A stretch of DNA of 64,000 nucleotides from Escherichia phage vB_EcoM_phAPEC6. The translations under genes and the position numbers were made by a program. Below are positions 9,400 to 15,820 of this stretch, piece by piece (the first letter of the stretch is position 1; each line of letters starts with the position of its first letter). Under the pieces are notes generated by a model that searched no databases, was not told the DNA's origin, and saw only the letters and a list, made by a program, of their open reading frames with translations. The stretch lies in sequence record MK817115.1, one strand, 5' to 3'.

Positions 9400-9753
9400 T
9401 TATTCTTCTTCTCCTGAAGGTGTTCCACGTAGTTTATCAAAATCAACCCAAATACCATGCTGGTTTTTAAATCGACATTTCTCATAGTACCAACTATAGT
9501 CTGTTTCAACACCTTGTGAAATAGAACGCACACTACAATCATACATATTATATAAATGTTCCCTGACAATATATGTATTAATCAGTACAACGAATAATAC
9601 AATAATACCACAGATTTTAGGATGGTCCATAATCAAGTCAAGTACTGAACTAGTTTCAGAACTATCAATCTTACTTCTACAAATAGCAACAATTTTAAGA
9701 ACAGCGAATGATACCAGTAATGAAATTACAATAACACTTAAATAAATTAGCAT
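9400..9753 (-). CDS. membrane protein (117 aa)
   Basis: N-terminal hydrophobic segments. Confidence 0.4.
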   Translation of the reverse strand: MLIYLSVIVISLLVSFAVLKIVAICRSKIDSSETSSVLDLIMDHPKICGIIVLFVVLINTYIVREHLYNMYDCSVRSISQGVETDYSWYYEKCRFKNQHGIWVDFDKLRGTPSGEEE

Positions 9754-10338: not shown

Positions 10339-10921
10339 ATACCTTTTTCAAATTCATAATTTCAAGAATGCTGTATTCTTTATCACCAATCAAATCTTCA
10401 GTGAATGCAGTGGGGTCGGCATCGCTATACAACTTACCATTGATGATAACACAACCATTACTAAGATACAATGCACTCATGATCTGTTGTCCTTCTTTCA
10501 CATTTTGTGCTAGACCTGTATTTGTTACTACAAATCCATTTGTTGCTAATGATGATGTTAGTTCTGACCATTCAACTGATATTAAGTCGCGATAGTCCTT
10601 AGATACTTTTATATTCACAATACAAGCAACTCGTTTAATAGGTGGAGTGCTAATCGTGTACATTTGTGGTTGTTGGTAATTAGAGTTGTATGTTTGTGGT
10701 GTTTTAACAGCAGTTCCTGAATTTTGAGTTGATTTGGTAATTACTGGTTCTACACTGGGGACTGTTGTTCTTAGTGATATAATACGTCCAGTTTCATCCA
10801 ATTTAAGGACTAAACGATGAGTTTCATCCTCAGAGTAATAGGGAAACAAGCCACCGGAATTCATATTTTGAAGCATTTTAATTAATTCATAAGTATTTTT
10901 TAAAAACATAGTACACCCCAT
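10322..10921 (-). CDS. hypothetical protein (199 aa)
   Basis: ORF; terminator hairpin abuts annotated start so true start may be internal. Confidence 0.35.
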   Translation of the reverse strand: MGCTMFLKNTYELIKMLQNMNSGGLFPYYSEDETHRLVLKLDETGRIISLRTTVPSVEPVITKSTQNSGTAVKTPQTYNSNYQQPQMYTISTPPIKRVACIVNIKVSKDYRDLISVEWSELTSSLATNGFVVTNTGLAQNVKEGQQIMSALYLSNGCVIINGKLYSDADPTAFTEDLIGDKEYSILEIMNLKKVYENHD

Positions 10922-10947
10922 AGAAAAGGGGAGTACAAAGTACTCCC
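10922..10947 (-). terminator. intrinsic terminator-like hairpin (GGGAGTAC-loop-GTACTCCC)
   Basis: 8-bp inverted repeat then CTTTTCT on minus strand, just after stop of 10957..11511. Confidence 0.5.
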
Positions 10948-10956
10948 AACATTTAA

Positions 10957-11511
10957 TTATAGTTTAATTGATTCTTGAATACCAGTATCCATTGCTTTCT
11001 TGGTACGTGTATCAGATACTACTGTACAAAGGTGTTCAATATTTTCACTTGGAAACGTATTCGAATCAAGAATTTTGGAATTCCAGAAGCCTTTGCGGAA
11101 CTTAGCATAATCAGTACACTGGTCAATTTTCATTTTCTGAAGATTGTTGAACTTTGTACGTCCTGTTTCAATTGTCACCATCAATTCCTGATAAATTTTA
11201 GGATCAAGATTTGGAACCTGTTGTTGAATCTGTGACATTACAAACTTCTGGTCAACACCTTCACGCCCTTTAAAGTATGACTCAATCGTTTCTTTCAACG
11301 CATTTTTGTACTTATCTGCTACTTGAACCTTATCTTGAATAGTAAGAGTATAATTGCTAAGTTGACTTTCAGATGCATCATAGTACTTTTTAATGTTTCC
11401 TTCAAACTCAACTGCACGATCATGTGCACCAACATACATACTAATAGAACCAAACACCATTAGTACAATAACTACCAAAATACCAATTAACGCAAGGAGT
11501 TTACCATTCAT
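10957..11511 (-). CDS. LemA-like membrane protein
   Basis: N-terminal TM helix then helical domain with LemA-like pattern (ETGRTKFNN...YAKFRKGFW). Confidence 0.45.
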   Translation of the reverse strand: MNGKLLALIGILVVIVLMVFGSISMYVGAHDRAVEFEGNIKKYYDASESQLSNYTLTIQDKVQVADKYKNALKETIESYFKGREGVDQKFVMSQIQQQVPNLDPKIYQELMVTIETGRTKFNNLQKMKIDQCTDYAKFRKGFWNSKILDSNTFPSENIEHLCTVVSDTRTKKAMDTGIQESIKL

Positions 11512-12602
11512 AAATCGTTATCCCTCATATAAAGGCCAATGAAAATAGACAGAATCAACAAAACAATGGAAGCACCGATAAGAACATCTTTTCTAGGTTC
11601 CATTTTTACTGACAAGTACTCAAACTCTTTATTAGAGAGTCTCTCAAACTGTGTGTCAATATTATGTACTTCTTTAACTAGTAAGTCAAGAGTTAATTTT
11701 TCATTTAATGCATCAATACGCATCTTTGCATGTAACTCTTCATTCTTCATTCCTTGTGCAAATGATGTACTGTAAAATTTGACAACGTTACCATCATTGT
11801 CAATACCAAAGAACATAATAACATCATTCTTCTTACCACCACGCCACGATGCAAGGGTAGCATCAACAAAATCCACATCTTTGTAATCATAAACTAGTAC
11901 TTGGATGTTTACCTGCTTTCGTGCACCCATCGTTTTTAGCTCATTACGAAGGTATTCATCGTAACCATCAACGTTGTAATTTGTAGTGTTAATTACGTGA
12001 TGTGTTTTGTAATAATCAACTACACTTGGGTATTCTGGAATAGTACTAAGATACTTTTCATCATACATGTTGTGTAGTTCTTCAGGACTAAACAATGAGT
12101 TCTTATCAGCAAATAGATAGTTGATATATGAACTCTCTGCGGCGGCATAGTCACCAATCATAACTTGCTGCCAACGTGGTGGTGTCATTGTACCTTGACG
12201 GTTCACACGTTCAATCTCAAACTCACCTACTGTACTTTTCACATACCAATCAACTTCATATGAGTAATCAAAAACCTTATATGATTCACACTCACGATGT
12301 GATTTACCTTTACTATCATATCGCGTATGGCACTTCTCATGCCATGTATAGTGCTTACATGAACTAGATTGTGTGCAATATTCTTTGTGGCTGTATTTTG
12401 AAGTTACTTGACCATTCAGAATCTCAACATCATAAAGCTGGCTATAGTTGATTGCGTATGAAATACCAAGAACAAGAGCCGCACCAACCAGACAACAACC
12501 AATATGAATCAATAGTTCTTTAGTACTGATATGCTTATCGTACATGTATTTCATAACGAATACAACGATAAGAGCAGGTATTAACAGAATAATGAAATTC
12601 AT
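11508..12602 (-). CDS. membrane protein with possible TPM-like domain (364 aa)
   Basis: N- and C-terminal TM segments; Cys/His cluster; C-terminal region resembles TPM fold pattern; overlaps LemA-like gene by 4 nt. Confidence 0.35.
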   Translation of the reverse strand: MNFIILLIPALIVVFVMKYMYDKHISTKELLIHIGCCLVGAALVLGISYAINYSQLYDVEILNGQVTSKYSHKEYCTQSSSCKHYTWHEKCHTRYDSKGKSHRECESYKVFDYSYEVDWYVKSTVGEFEIERVNRQGTMTPPRWQQVMIGDYAAAESSYINYLFADKNSLFSPEELHNMYDEKYLSTIPEYPSVVDYYKTHHVINTTNYNVDGYDEYLRNELKTMGARKQVNIQVLVYDYKDVDFVDATLASWRGGKKNDVIMFFGIDNDGNVVKFYSTSFAQGMKNEELHAKMRIDALNEKLTLDLLVKEVHNIDTQFERLSNKEFEYLSVKMEPRKDVLIGASIVLLILSIFIGLYMRDNDL

Positions 12603-12605
12603 GTA

Positions 12606-13295
12606 TTAATCCATTTTAAGCTTGTTTAGACAGAATGAAATCTGGATTGCTTCACGTGCTGCATCAAACAGTGGGTGATGTAACTCCAACCCATTAATCC
12701 CACACGTATTTGCATATGTGATAAATTTATCCAACTGTACCGAAACGATTTCATCCATTTCAATACGAGCTTCTTCATTCAATAAACGTTTCAATGTGCG
12801 TGCATTTTCAGGTGCATCATACTTCCACAACTCACCAGCGTTCATTAGTTTTAAATGGTTTGCTTGTAAAATACTACAATCGAAGTTACATCCGTTGCCC
12901 CAGACTGAATGAGGAACTTCTTCACCATAATCATTGTAACGTAATTCTTTCCAGAAATCAACAATACTACTGTATGCAAAAAATCGTCGTGATTGACCAT
13001 TCGGTCCATACAGTTCAGGTGCTTTGAGTTTCATAGTACTGGCAACTTCAGAATATGCATTAGGGTATTCTTTCTGACATGTATTCATCCAAAAATCCAT
13101 TGCACCTGCGTCTGATTTTAAACCAGCAGCAACTTGATCCTGGTATGGTAATTTAATATATAAGAACTGACGAATGTCATTTTCAGGTTTACTTGGAACT
13201 ACTACTGCTGCGTAATTTGGGATAATAATATCATAACCGGAAAGTTCAGGTGTTCCAAGAGCTTCAATATCAACACTAATATGACGACGTTTCAT
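12606..13295 (-). CDS. DEDDh-type 3'-5' exonuclease (DexA-like)
   Basis: Exo motifs VDIEALG, NGCNFD, HHPLFDA in order. Confidence 0.6.
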   Translation of the reverse strand: MKRRHISVDIEALGTPELSGYDIIIPNYAAVVVPSKPENDIRQFLYIKLPYQDQVAAGLKSDAGAMDFWMNTCQKEYPNAYSEVASTMKLKAPELYGPNGQSRRFFAYSSIVDFWKELRYNDYGEEVPHSVWGNGCNFDCSILQANHLKLMNAGELWKYDAPENARTLKRLLNEEARIEMDEIVSVQLDKFITYANTCGINGLELHHPLFDAAREAIQISFCLNKLKMD

Positions 13296-13318
13296 AAGTT
13301 AGTTCCTTATCTGTACAT

Positions 13319-13362
13319 TAAAAAGAGTGCGTTTTCAATAAGATTATATTAAAAACGCACTC
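13319..13362 (-). terminator. intrinsic terminator-like hairpin (11-bp stem GAGTGCGTTTT / AAAACGCACTC)
   Basis: Long inverted repeat with T-run on minus strand between two genes. Confidence 0.5.
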
Positions 13363-13374
13363 ATATGTCAACTA

Positions 13375-14511
13375 TTACTTGTTAGCTTTTTCGGCAATTT
13401 CACGAAGAGTGTCTTCCAGTTCATAGGAAAGTTGTGCAATTTCCTGTTTAGCACGTTCACGTTCCAATTTACCTTTTTTCTCTTCTTCAATAACTGCTTC
13501 AATACTGTCAATCATCGTTTTATGTACATTACGCAAGGTTTTAATATCCACAATACCACGGTTGTTTGCCTTTGCTGCATCCAACATATTTGCTGCAACC
13601 ATTTTAGAGTTAGTTTCCAAAAGACGGTTTGTCTCATTATCAATTAGATTGCCTAGTTCATTATCCTTACGTTGACGCTCGGAAATCAACTGTTCAGCCA
13701 ATTGAGACTTCCATGCTGGAATAACAACGGATTTTAAATCTTCAAACTTAGAAACAGTGTTCAAGTTTACTTTTTTCATACTCATCAAGCGTGGACCACT
13801 TAGTTCGCACATCATGATAAGACGACGAATCTTATCTTCTTGTTTAGAAAGTGCTTCACAAATCATCTTTTGCTCTTGAATAGCAAAAGAGTCTACATTT
13901 TTGTCTGCTTGCATTTCTACTAATAATGCATCTTGTGTTTTAGTCACTTCTTCTAAACCAACTAATGTATCACGCAATTCAAACAAATATTCTTTGTTTT
14001 CATTATATGCTTTATCAAGCCATTCACATTCTCCGTGCTGGCGATTAATACCAGTTTGAAGAGTTTTCATAATTTCGTCAATTTGCTCTTTACTGTTTTT
14101 GTACTGATCACCTACTTTCTGTTGAGCATTAACAAAGAATTTCTTAATACGACCAACAATTGATTTATCTTCTTGAAGACTGTCAATATCAACTGCACGA
14201 GTCAACGTAAGAATTGTGGTGATTGATTTACCAAACTCGGTATTGTCATCCGTTACATTAACTTTAGACATAATTTCATCAGCCAAACGCCCAACAGCAG
14301 CACCAGCAGTTGTACCAACAGTATTGATGTTTTGAACTGTTAGAGACATAGTATTTCCCTTAACATCTTTCAGTACTGGTAGTGATTTTGTAGTTTGGTT
14401 AAAAATATCACTTGCATCAATTGTATGACCTTTAGTCGCAGTTTTAGTAGTACGTTTTGCTGATTTAGCTGCGGTGGATGCTTTTTTAGGATTGATTTCT
14501 TTCTCGGACAT
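13375..14511 (-). CDS. coiled-coil protein, possibly TelA/KlaA-like (378 aa)
   Basis: Long helical heptad-rich sequence; size and architecture fit TelA-like proteins, no hard motif. Confidence 0.3.
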   Translation of the reverse strand: MSEKEINPKKASTAAKSAKRTTKTATKGHTIDASDIFNQTTKSLPVLKDVKGNTMSLTVQNINTVGTTAGAAVGRLADEIMSKVNVTDDNTEFGKSITTILTLTRAVDIDSLQEDKSIVGRIKKFFVNAQQKVGDQYKNSKEQIDEIMKTLQTGINRQHGECEWLDKAYNENKEYLFELRDTLVGLEEVTKTQDALLVEMQADKNVDSFAIQEQKMICEALSKQEDKIRRLIMMCELSGPRLMSMKKVNLNTVSKFEDLKSVVIPAWKSQLAEQLISERQRKDNELGNLIDNETNRLLETNSKMVAANMLDAAKANNRGIVDIKTLRNVHKTMIDSIEAVIEEEKKGKLERERAKQEIAQLSYELEDTLREIAEKANK

Positions 14512-14596
14512 TTAGTATTCCTCGTTTAATTTAATATGATGTGCTGCTCTGTGATAAACATTATACGGACAGCACGTATGATAGTCAAGTATTTTT

Positions 14597-15724
14597 TTAC
14601 TCTTTGTTACCATATGCCAGATTACGAATAATTTCTACAGTACTCTCATCCACAGCTTTACCTGTCTGTGATTGTAAACGATTGATAATCAAAGGAATAG
14701 TAATAGTTTGAATATCTACCATACGATTCATATCAACTTGATATTGCTTACTTGTTGCAATAATGCTCGTTTCAGTCATGGAGGTGGTGATTCCCATTTT
14801 CATAATACGTTCTAATGTTAATTCATATTCAAACGCATCATCCACACAACGTAGTGCGTATTCACAACCCAACTTACCATATTCAAGTTCATTTTTGATT
14901 TCATTAACTTCGTTTCTAAGTTCTGAAAACATCGTACTAAGACCACTAAACTTATTAGTGTCATACTTAACTGCTTCATTTAGTGCTTTCATCACTTTTG
15001 GCAAATCTGATGGTTGCACTTTGATATCAGTTTTACCAAACAATTTCTGTGTAAAGGTCGGCTTCAATGGGAACAACGTCTCCAACGCAACAGTAAGGTT
15101 ATTCATAAGCATTCTAATATAATCACTATGCTGTTGTAATGCTGAGTTAAGATCCAATTGACGTTCTGAAATTTGTTGAATCTTAGTTCCAATTTCTTGT
15201 GCACAAACTGGTAAGTTTACAAACCAGTCTAGTACTTTTACTGAATTCTTTTCAATAGTACTAGGGAATTCAACCCATCTTTCAATGTCATCAATTCTGC
15301 TATCGTCTGGGTTGATAGGTTTTTTCTTAAGAACAATAGGTGCAGGTACATCTGGTGATGTTTGTACCAAGTCTAAACGTGGTTTGGCACGACCTTCTTT
15401 CCATTCACGATATTCACGCTCTAATGGCGGTACTGGCATGTTAGGATCAATTCTAATATTACTAAAATGAATTTTATCCTTCATTAAATCAAGAACTTTC
15501 AGACGTTTATTATCAAAATAGATTTCATCTAATGACAGAGTTTTTACATCAAATAACGGATTACCCAGCGAGTCATAGGTGCGACGTACAATTACATTGT
15601 AAATGTATTTTTTGTTTGATGAACGGTCATATTGTTTCAATAAAGAGTTCAGTACATAATTATAGTTAAATTCTTGAATCTCAACTTCTTTGCCATTTTC
15701 AATGAAAAAATATTTACCTTTCAT
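14597..15724 (-). CDS. hypothetical protein (375 aa)
   Basis: ORF only. Confidence 0.4.
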   Translation of the reverse strand: MKGKYFFIENGKEVEIQEFNYNYVLNSLLKQYDRSSNKKYIYNVIVRRTYDSLGNPLFDVKTLSLDEIYFDNKRLKVLDLMKDKIHFSNIRIDPNMPVPPLEREYREWKEGRAKPRLDLVQTSPDVPAPIVLKKKPINPDDSRIDDIERWVEFPSTIEKNSVKVLDWFVNLPVCAQEIGTKIQQISERQLDLNSALQQHSDYIRMLMNNLTVALETLFPLKPTFTQKLFGKTDIKVQPSDLPKVMKALNEAVKYDTNKFSGLSTMFSELRNEVNEIKNELEYGKLGCEYALRCVDDAFEYELTLERIMKMGITTSMTETSIIATSKQYQVDMNRMVDIQTITIPLIINRLQSQTGKAVDESTVEIIRNLAYGNKE

Positions 15725-15820
15725 TATAAAACCTCATAATCAATTAAAATTTACGCTATGGTGATATTGTACATACTTCGACTACACATGTCAACACCTG
15801 AAAAGAAAAAAGGACGCACC

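Follow-up and report, generated by a model that had tools for sequence, protein, structure and literature searches.

A putative diverged LemA–TPM gene pair in virulent phages of diderm hosts

Whether neighbouring phage genes form a single functional module, and what those that belong together do at the host envelope, is the question raised by a locus in Escherichia phage vB_EcoM_phAPEC6 (MK817115.1), a 121Q/PBECO4-type jumbo coliphage (Asteriusvirus). The window analysed here is the whole stretch of 64,000 nt; coordinates refer to it, and all features described lie on its minus strand. An earlier note had described four ORFs, encoding a LemA-like protein, a transmembrane (TM) protein with a TPM-like region, a DEDDh exonuclease and a TelA-like protein, and had treated them as one set with a possible part in superinfection exclusion, envelope stress or lysis timing. 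All four are present as described. Gene A (10957..11511; 184 aa; 121Q gp69; phrog_1383) and gene B (11508..12602; 364 aa; 121Q gp68; phrog_2087) share an ATGA overlap and are translationally coupled through it, and upstream of them lie the genes for the exonuclease (12606..13295) and the TelA-family protein (13375..14511). A putative sigma-70 promoter with a full consensus match (TTGACA-17-TATAAT, 12/12; 13343..13371) precedes the exonuclease gene, although the scan as a whole returned 23 matches against 21.4 expected from shuffles and so showed no enrichment. A terminator-like hairpin that is also annotated in phage G17 (10929..10947) follows gene A. Little space separates the exonuclease gene from B and A, and from this layout it is probably co-transcribed with them.

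Protein A crosses the inner membrane once, and its family forms a remote branch of LemA. Its only TM helix spans residues 5–23, and in the AF2 model a helix at residues 3–62 is followed by three others (66–81, 88–98 and 104–139). This is the LemA architecture, an N-terminal TM segment and a helical bundle of about 150 aa, with the extra-long first helix given in the published description of LemA. The Pfam LemA profile (PF04011) did not match the window protein even at E ≤ 10; 12 of 47 A-family members matched at E ≤ 0.01, all under the gathering cut-off of 26.2 bits (top member 24.6 bits, E = 2.5e-5). When a wider family profile (A4) was searched against PDB sequences with hmmsearch, it matched chain A of 2ETD, the crystal structure of the LemA protein TM0961 of T. 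maritima, with E = 6.2e-6. The alignment (query 30–158, chain 10–155) covers nearly the whole domain and places the LemA-like soluble part of A (residues ~30–158) at 11038..11424. Comparison of the A family with 2ETD by hhalign gave a probability of 93.8% (E = 1.7e-7, 123 columns). A profile built from close homologues only (A1) found no LemA match in the PDB; the link appeared because distant A partners had been recovered through the neighbourhoods of B.

For protein B, the AF2 model (pLDDT 91.8) predicts an inner-membrane protein with three TM segments (residues 2–20, 27–54 and 338–361), in which a cysteine-rich beta domain (residues ~57–160; 12123..12434) is followed by a TPM-fold domain (residues ~203–318; 11649..11996) and the C-terminal TM helix. 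The modelled TPM-fold domain consists of a four-stranded beta sheet and four flanking helices, a layout that agrees with the published TPM definition and can be superposed on solved TPM domains. Sequence searches gave less. Pfam TPM (PF04536) did not match the window protein, its matches in 4 of 42 family members (best E = 0.013) all stayed below the cut-off, and no Pfam domain was found in any of 97 B homologues. A search of PDB sequences with the B profile returned no TPM domain and, over the cysteine-rich segment, insignificant zinc-finger-like matches. Against three single bacterial TPM partners, hhalign gave E values of 0.006–0.23, which we judged not significant. Scans of the window proteins with NCBIfam, Pfam and PADLOC likewise returned nothing for A or B. 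The earlier note had named a lack of profile support for LemA or TPM as grounds for abandoning its assignments. Taken literally, with Pfam and the window proteins, that lack is what we found, but the family-level profile of A and the fold of B overturn it, and both guesses were essentially right.

A further argument comes from cellular genomes. That LemA and TPM genes form a real bacterial pair, as the earlier note had supposed, is borne out by their adjacency in all four bacterial replicons inspected (Bacteroides, Pseudomonas, Legionella and Leptospira), and because of this adjacency the two weak assignments in the phage support each other. As in the phages, these bacterial pairs (YgcG family) place a single-pass LemA-type gene beside a membrane-anchored TPM gene; the pairs compared include LemA-YgcG-TPM of Pseudomonas pG20 and TPM-LemA of Bacteroides finegoldii, where TPM precedes LemA in the same order as in the phages. 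The phage proteins differ in that both fall below the Pfam cut-offs, and B adds an N-terminal hairpin of two TM segments and the cysteine-rich beta domain, as modelled for the phage protein. Many bacteria have two TPM genes, whereas the phages have one. Taken together, the adjacency of A and B, their domain assignments and the adjacency of LemA and TPM in bacteria suggest that the phage pair is a form of the bacterial one that has diverged and become adapted to phages. In the literature searched, we found no account of the phage pair as LemA–TPM, no phage TPM-domain protein and no description of the LemA–TPM pairing itself.

The distribution of the genes identifies the conserved unit as the two-gene pair B→A and not the four-gene set. 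At 32 of 37 informative loci (those with room for a neighbour), A adjoins B, directly downstream in 31 and directly upstream in one. B was counted in 485 records of isolated phages and A in 501, and the hosts are distributed almost identically for the two genes. The carriers, some 500 sequenced virulent phages, span at least eight lineages and include Ackermannviridae, ICP1, T5-like, T4-like, Agricanvirus, rak2-like and other phages, with several jumbo groups represented; adjacency was inspected one by one in ICP1, PhaxI, pVp-1, GAP32, Ah1 and RAY. With the pair in so many isolates of many groups, its presence in a lytic phage is not the unusual feature it had been taken for. The pair is almost wholly confined to virulent phages of diderm hosts, and it also occurs in two bacterial chromosomes (Achromobacter and Variovorax), beside housekeeping genes such as recA. 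A B–A fusion (P0187) is real in the sequence; as a singleton on one 9.5-kb contig it may be an artefact, and for that reason we gave it little weight as Rosetta-stone evidence.

Both soluble domains are suggested to face the periplasm, a placement inferred from positive-inside charge bias and from the cysteines of the two proteins. The flanks of the TM helix of A carry a net charge of +1.25 on the N side and −0.76 on the C side, favouring N-in/C-out, and its cysteines C132 and C162 co-vary (both in 76 sequences, neither in 142, one in 4). In B, the charge bias favours the periplasm, the modelled C-terminal TM anchor follows the TPM domain, and four cysteines (C76, C82, C91 and C105) are conserved in 76–97 of 98 homologues, the soluble part being otherwise nearly free of cysteine. 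Zinc binding would be another reading of the cysteine-rich segment, one compatible with a position in the cytoplasm.

The best explanation, in our view, is that B→A is a diverged LemA–TPM pair acting as a periplasm-facing envelope scaffold, a reading that we regard as evenly poised between right and wrong. The pair would be made early, as the consensus sigma-70 promoter suggests, from a host sigma-70-type promoter and, in this phage group, on a single transcript with the exonuclease. The two proteins would form a complex that has no enzymatic activity and, anchored in the inner membrane, serves on its periplasmic side as a scaffold or chaperone. Its task would be to stabilize, assemble or remodel protein complexes of the membrane, so that the host envelope goes on working through a long infection cycle. 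This mechanism is drawn by analogy, since bacterial LemA–TPM itself has no established role. A LemA-like domain has been modelled as a membrane scaffold, and the C-terminal domains of LemA proteins are described as extracytoplasmic (PMC3905215). Like A, the LemA-family protein MamQ has an N-terminal TM anchor and a LemA-type helical domain on the extracytoplasmic, lumenal side; it is required for magnetosome membrane formation and implicated in inner-membrane remodelling (PMC3905215). However, MamQ acts with other Mam proteins, and that paper reports no TPM partner for it. A remodelling role for A would be an analogy. TPM is a partner of PspA and has been proposed to help membrane complexes assemble in the manner of a chaperone (PMC11237479). 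Two TPM-domain accessory proteins, TLP18.3/Psb32 of photosystem II repair and the PspA partner YdjH of B. subtilis, share only 12–14% sequence identity with B, and the phages lack a PspA or photosystem context. A wider proposal, which we hold tentatively and consider somewhat unlikely, is that B and A would form a dedicated periplasm-facing complex of the inner membrane, an accessory near-universal in large virulent phages of Gram-negative hosts, with the model phages ICP1 and CBA120 among its carriers, and that this complex would govern the condition of that membrane. Examples of such control are preventing a premature loss of membrane potential and closing DNA entry to rival phages.

The latter possibility leads to superinfection exclusion. 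T4 Imm and Sp are early envelope proteins (inner membrane/periplasm) that act in superinfection exclusion, and an early, periplasm-facing B–A pair might similarly stop a second phage from getting through the cell wall or bringing in its DNA. The inner-membrane anchors, the inferred periplasmic domains, the suggested early expression and the near-confinement to virulent phages of diderm hosts are all consistent with this idea. However, the relation to Imm and Sp is a functional analogy with no sequence or structural counterpart, the pair does not resemble any known exclusion protein and a PADLOC scan gave no hit. Together, its occurrence in bacterial chromosomes beside recA and its probable descent from a widespread cellular LemA–TPM pair favour a general membrane function over exclusion, which we consider unlikely.

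An enzymatic role for B appears still less probable, and we would be surprised if it proved correct. Here the TPM domain would be a periplasmic phosphatase or nucleotidase acting on, for example, lipids or nucleotides, with A as its membrane partner. Phosphatase or ATPase/ADPase activity has been reported for some TPM domains (cited in PMC11237479), and B has a nearly invariant motif, W-x-G-G-K-K-N-D, that aligns locally with W-x-x-G-x-K of bacterial TPM proteins. These local alignments are not significant, however, and recent comparative analyses, including PMC11237479, judge TPM unlikely to be a phosphatase.

Could A, B, the exonuclease and TelA nevertheless work as one envelope module? Identification of the two upstream genes is straightforward, and the guesses made for both hold. 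The exonuclease is a DEDDh 3'-5' enzyme (Rv2179c-like) that matches Pfam PF16473 at 35.5 bits (cut-off 27; E = 1.1e-8) and phrog_255 (exonuclease), with the residues D9-x-E11, D139 and H206-x4-D211 in place. The 378-aa protein, which has no hydrophobic segment, is a full-length member of the TelA/KlaB toxic-anion resistance family (RK2 telAB), matching Pfam PF05816 at 129.7 bits (cut-off 30; E = 1.8e-37; profile positions 14–331 of 332) and phrog_5890 at E = 4e-136. No solved relative of either protein was found among PDB sequences, and both are already annotated in GenBank. Phage TelA genes have been noted earlier (PMC8386662). No telB, terC or terD gene was seen in the ~6-kb flanks inspected, and gene E, considered as a TelA paralogue, has no sequence similarity to TelA.

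The order E-TelA-exo-B-A is common to Asteriusvirus and the distant Mimasvirus GAP32 (B 52% identical), and this shared synteny and the packing of the exonuclease with B and A would suit a four-gene module. The TelA family is linked to envelope or toxic-anion stress, which would also fit. Yet TelA and the exonuclease stand beside B–A in rak2-like phages only and are absent from every such locus outside them, while TelA occurs in 257 phage records with a host and lineage spectrum unlike that of B–A. Between TelA and the exonuclease lie a terminator-like hairpin with a T-run (13325..13362; a terminator in the annotation of phage G17) and the exo-B-A promoter that it overlaps, and TelA is preceded by its own sigma-70-like promoter (14560..14588; 11/12 consensus match). 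TelA is thus a separate transcription unit and a local neighbour of B–A only. A tie between a cytoplasmic nuclease and proteins that face the periplasm is also not evident. The distribution data already largely refute the four-gene reading, which we consider highly improbable; the arrangement is local synteny. TelA may have a related role in envelope stress, but the protein is cytoplasmic and its gene is distributed independently.

It is just as improbable that the likeness to LemA and TPM is convergent or spurious and that B and A are a membrane pair peculiar to phages, with no kinship to the bacterial one. Convergence does repeatedly produce helical bundles and small alpha/beta sandwiches, no member of either family exceeds a Pfam cut-off, and fold searches with the model of A do not single LemA out. 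The A4 match to 2ETD and the adjacency of the two genes in phages and bacteria alike support the diverged LemA–TPM pair.

Few bacterial membrane-protein families without an established function are as widespread as LemA and TPM, and a diverged pair occurring as a tightly coupled phage unit offers a testable handle on both the phage function and the cellular pair. Genetically tractable carriers include ICP1, CBA120-like phages and T5-like vibriophages. If B–A does control the state of the inner membrane, phage genetics could reveal what bacterial LemA–TPM does, since the phage pair appears to descend from the cellular one.

Annotations are affected as well. In nearly all records B is 'hypothetical' and A is either 'hypothetical' or a 'virion structural protein'. 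The structural role that phrog_1383 and several GenBank/RefSeq records ('putative structural protein') assign to A is barely credible given its N-terminal TM anchor, its coupling to the three-TM protein B, its position behind a sigma-70-type promoter with non-structural genes around it, the absence of RAY gp46 from the mass-spectrometric protein list of the RAY/Deimos-Minion study and our failure to find a proteomic source for the label. A is therefore probably not structural, and the protein annotated as a 'metallopeptidase' is the exonuclease.

The window phage is a 121Q/PBECO4/G17-type jumbo coliphage (Asteriusvirus, ~350 kb), and 21 deposited genomes are at least 99% identical to it over positions 10900-14600. 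All genes of the region are carried on the minus strand. ORF calling placed four ORFs exactly where an earlier, sequence-only note had read them: A, a LemA-like membrane protein (10957-11511, minus strand, 184 aa); B, a putative TPM-like membrane protein (11508-12602, minus strand, 364 aa); an exonuclease (12606-13295, minus strand, 229 aa); and a TelA-like protein (13375-14511, minus strand, 378 aa). The 4-nt overlap described between A and B is indeed there, as ATGA, and only 3 nt separate the exonuclease stop from the B start. All four are real genes, each matched by numerous homologues at very strong E-values. GenBank labels 121Q gp66 'TelA-like' and gp69 'LEMA protein; bromodomain-like fold', and B is 'hypothetical' in all annotated records inspected, save a few with a generic 'membrane protein'. 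About 1.2 kb downstream of the B-A pair, among small genes without assigned function, a 117-aa ORF (9400-9753, minus strand, phrog_8041) has hydrophobic stretches that suggest transmembrane segments.

The assignment of A to LemA emerged at the level of the family. Window A had no match to Pfam LemA, even at E ≤ 10; close relatives (51% identity or more, each on a jumbo-phage-like contig) carried no Pfam domain, and a profile built from them did not find LemA in the PDB. We reached more distant relatives through the gene neighbours of remote B homologues on contigs of T4-like and other large phages, where B was always followed by a ~186-aa ORF alignable with A. Two of these partners matched Pfam LemA (E = 2.5e-5, 24.6 bits against a cut-off of 26.2; and E = 0.0045), as did 12 of the 47 members of the broadened A-family alignment at E ≤ 0.01. 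The profile of that alignment matched the Thermotoga LemA crystal structure 2ETD over residues 30-158 (E = 6.2e-6; hhalign probability 93.8%, E = 1.7e-7), which bears out the LemA-like reading of A for the family profile, whereas the window protein alone gives no Pfam match. An exhaustive search with the A-family profile returned 1,888 cluster representatives, nearly all of 180-200 aa.

For B, the earlier TPM-like guess is favoured by the predicted fold and not by profiles. Pfam TPM (PF04536) was not found in window B and was matched by 4 of 42 B-family members (best E = 0.013), and the B profile gave no TPM support against PDB sequences. Direct hhalign comparison with three bacterial TPM partners gave E = 0.006-0.23, with short local alignments coinciding with a common W-x-G-x-K motif. 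The B family is deep and diverse (97 homologues, down to 23% identity) and the structure model is accordingly confident (pLDDT 91.8). In this model, two TM helices (residues 2-20 and 27-54) precede a beta-rich, Cys-rich domain (residues 57-160), an alpha/beta domain with the four strands and four helices of a TPM-like fold (residues 203-318) and a C-terminal TM helix (residues 338-361). One B homologue weakly matches the Pfam LiaI-LiaF-TM_PspC transmembrane region (E = 0.0029), an observation we set beside the role of TPM proteins as PspA-system partners.

Bacterial LemA and TPM genes had been described as a conserved two-gene unit, and we used a bona fide T. maritima LemA sequence as query against annotated plasmids and secondary replicons. 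LemA directly adjoined one or more TPM-domain genes in 4/4 replicons inspected (Bacteroides, Pseudomonas, Legionella and Leptospira), with the Bacteroides order, TPM then LemA, the same as the phage order B then A. The phage version appears to differ in its added two-TM hairpin and Cys-rich beta domain. We consider it very probable that B-A is a diverged LemA-TPM unit.

The pair is conserved well beyond this phage. Among 40 fetched loci containing B, in 31 the next ORF downstream, in the same orientation, belonged to the A family, in one (L019) the order was reversed and A directly preceded B, and in three the contig ended before A could be seen. The remaining five had B alone, all in bacterial-looking chromosomal contexts (L017, L026, L028, L030 and L032, from Myxococcota, Deltaproteobacteria, Planctomycetota and a Rickettsiales-like MAG). 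Locus-by-locus checks confirmed that B and A are neighbours in Vibrio phage ICP1, Kuttervirus PhaxI (Ackermannviridae), T5-like vibriophage pVp-1, Mimasvirus GAP32, T4-like Aeromonas phage Ah1 and Erwinia jumbo phage RAY. Far from being unusual in lytic phages, as had been supposed, the pair is common: B occurs in 485 and A in 501 isolated phage records, with nearly identical host counts. Homologues in Lak megaphages of Prevotella (15 records) and Tenacibaculum phages extend the A family to phages of Bacteroidota. B followed by A also occurs in the bacterial isolate chromosomes of Variovorax sp. WDL1 (L022, 5902-7721) and Achromobacter anxifer (L021, 5956-7687), in the latter with recA and the gene of an MscS-type channel as immediate neighbours. 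Many B-A loci belong to MAGs labelled Saccharibacteria, Paceibacterota, Peribacteria and even 'Rickettsia typhi' (L015-L020, L023, L025, L029, L033-L039) and are probably phage contigs binned there in error.

GenBank already carries the labels TelA, exonuclease and 'LEMA protein'. Three points seem to be new: the predicted TPM fold of B, the correspondence of phage B-A to the LemA-TPM pair of bacteria, and the conservation of this tightly coupled unit in ~500 virulent phages, tractable models among them, from at least eight lineages. In the papers searched we found no description of a LemA-TPM pairing, and a search for phage TPM-domain proteins brought up none.

Charge distribution was used to predict topology. 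Across 217 A sequences, the N-terminal flank of the TM helix has a net charge of +1.25 and the next 15 residues -0.76, with the N flank more positive in 85% of sequences; this bias predicts an N-in/C-out orientation, in agreement with LemA C-terminal domains described as extracytoplasmic (PMC3905215). Cysteines C132 and C162 of A occur together in 76 sequences, are both missing from 142 and occur singly in 4 (both in 12 and neither in 33 clusters at 45% identity), the sequence pattern of a disulfide. In B, net positive charge falls on the TM1-TM2 loop and the C-terminal tail, and net negative charge on the stretch that follows TM2; four beta-domain cysteines are retained in 76-97 of 98 sequences, and the rest of the soluble part has almost none. 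We infer that B is N-out with its loop in, its soluble domains periplasmic and its C terminus in, although the Cys cluster could instead be a zinc site and hence cytoplasmic. A 553-aa B-A fusion protein on a 9.5-kb JGI metagenome contig, formed by loss of the B stop codon immediately ahead of the A start methionine, would if genuine place both soluble domains on the same side of the membrane; as a singleton, it may be a sequencing artefact.

In a scan scoring sigma-70 consensus matches across the region, the best three (12/12, 11/12 and 11/12, all on the coding strand) fall between genes, immediately 5' of the exonuclease, TelA and E, a 375-aa gene upstream of TelA (14597-15724, minus strand, phrog_13312); the scan as a whole was not enriched relative to shuffles (23 found, 21.4 expected). 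The E match spans 15766-15794 (minus strand). Terminator-like hairpins lie directly 3' of A, of TelA and of the gene upstream of E, and the annotation of phage G17 has the same terminators. At 13325-13371 (minus strand), the hairpin after TelA overlaps the perfect consensus upstream of the exonuclease (TTGACA-17-TATAAT), whose -10 element falls in the hairpin's loop region. The region thus looks like three transcription units, [E], [TelA] and [exonuclease-B-A], each with a host-type promoter, and these consensus matches suggest early expression.

TPM domains support membrane complexes in an accessory or assembly role, for example in PSII repair and in YdjH, a conserved PspA partner. Formation of magnetosome membranes depends on MamQ, a protein of the LemA family (PMC3905215), and a mycobacterial LemA-like domain has been modelled as a membrane-proximal scaffold. 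Building on this published framework, we tentatively propose that B and A could form an early-made, inner-membrane-anchored, periplasm-facing scaffold that would stabilise, assemble or remodel membrane complexes and thereby maintain a working host envelope while large virulent phages go through their long infection cycle. A role in superinfection exclusion seems unlikely. It is more doubtful still that the TPM domain of B is a periplasmic hydrolase, TPM having been argued to be a chaperone-like assembly factor of membrane-linked complexes and not a phosphatase (PMC11237479). The four-gene membrane-associated module of the earlier note is very improbable as a functional unit: TelA, the exonuclease and E accompany B-A only in rak2-like jumbo phages, and TelA (257 phage records) has a different spectrum, occurring in Phapecoctavirus, Justusliebigvirus and Lactobacillus, Listeria, Caulobacter and Campylobacter phages and nearly missing from Ackermannviridae and vibriophages, so that the four-gene grouping is lineage-specific synteny. 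Just as improbable is that the LemA and TPM homologies are spurious; A and B both fall below the Pfam cut-offs, but a protein LemA-like by sequence coupled to one TPM-like by structure recreates a known gene pair, so that the two remote assignments reinforce each other. That A is a virion protein is scarcely credible, as we found no proteomic basis for the 'virion structural protein' label and RAY gp46 was not among the mass-spectrometry-detected proteins in the RAY/Deimos-Minion study. The scaffold mechanism would not be surprising, but the pair offers a good handle on two widespread families without established function.

The TelA-like and exonuclease readings of the two other genes held up. 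The 378-aa protein belongs to the TelA family along its full length (129.7 bits against a Pfam cut-off of 30, E = 1.8e-37, profile positions 14-331 of 332) and lacks a hydrophobic segment. The 229-aa protein scores above the Pfam cut-off for the Rv2179c-like 3'-5' exoribonuclease family and has the DEDDh residues D9, E11, D139 and H206-x4-D211; its 'metallopeptidase' or 'peptidase' label in the 121Q, GAP32, UB, PBECO4 and BF17 records is, judging from these matches, probably a propagated legacy mis-annotation. Gene E has no Pfam family, TM segment or sequence similarity to TelA by which paralogy could be detected, and its position upstream of TelA is kept in both Asteriusvirus and GAP32.
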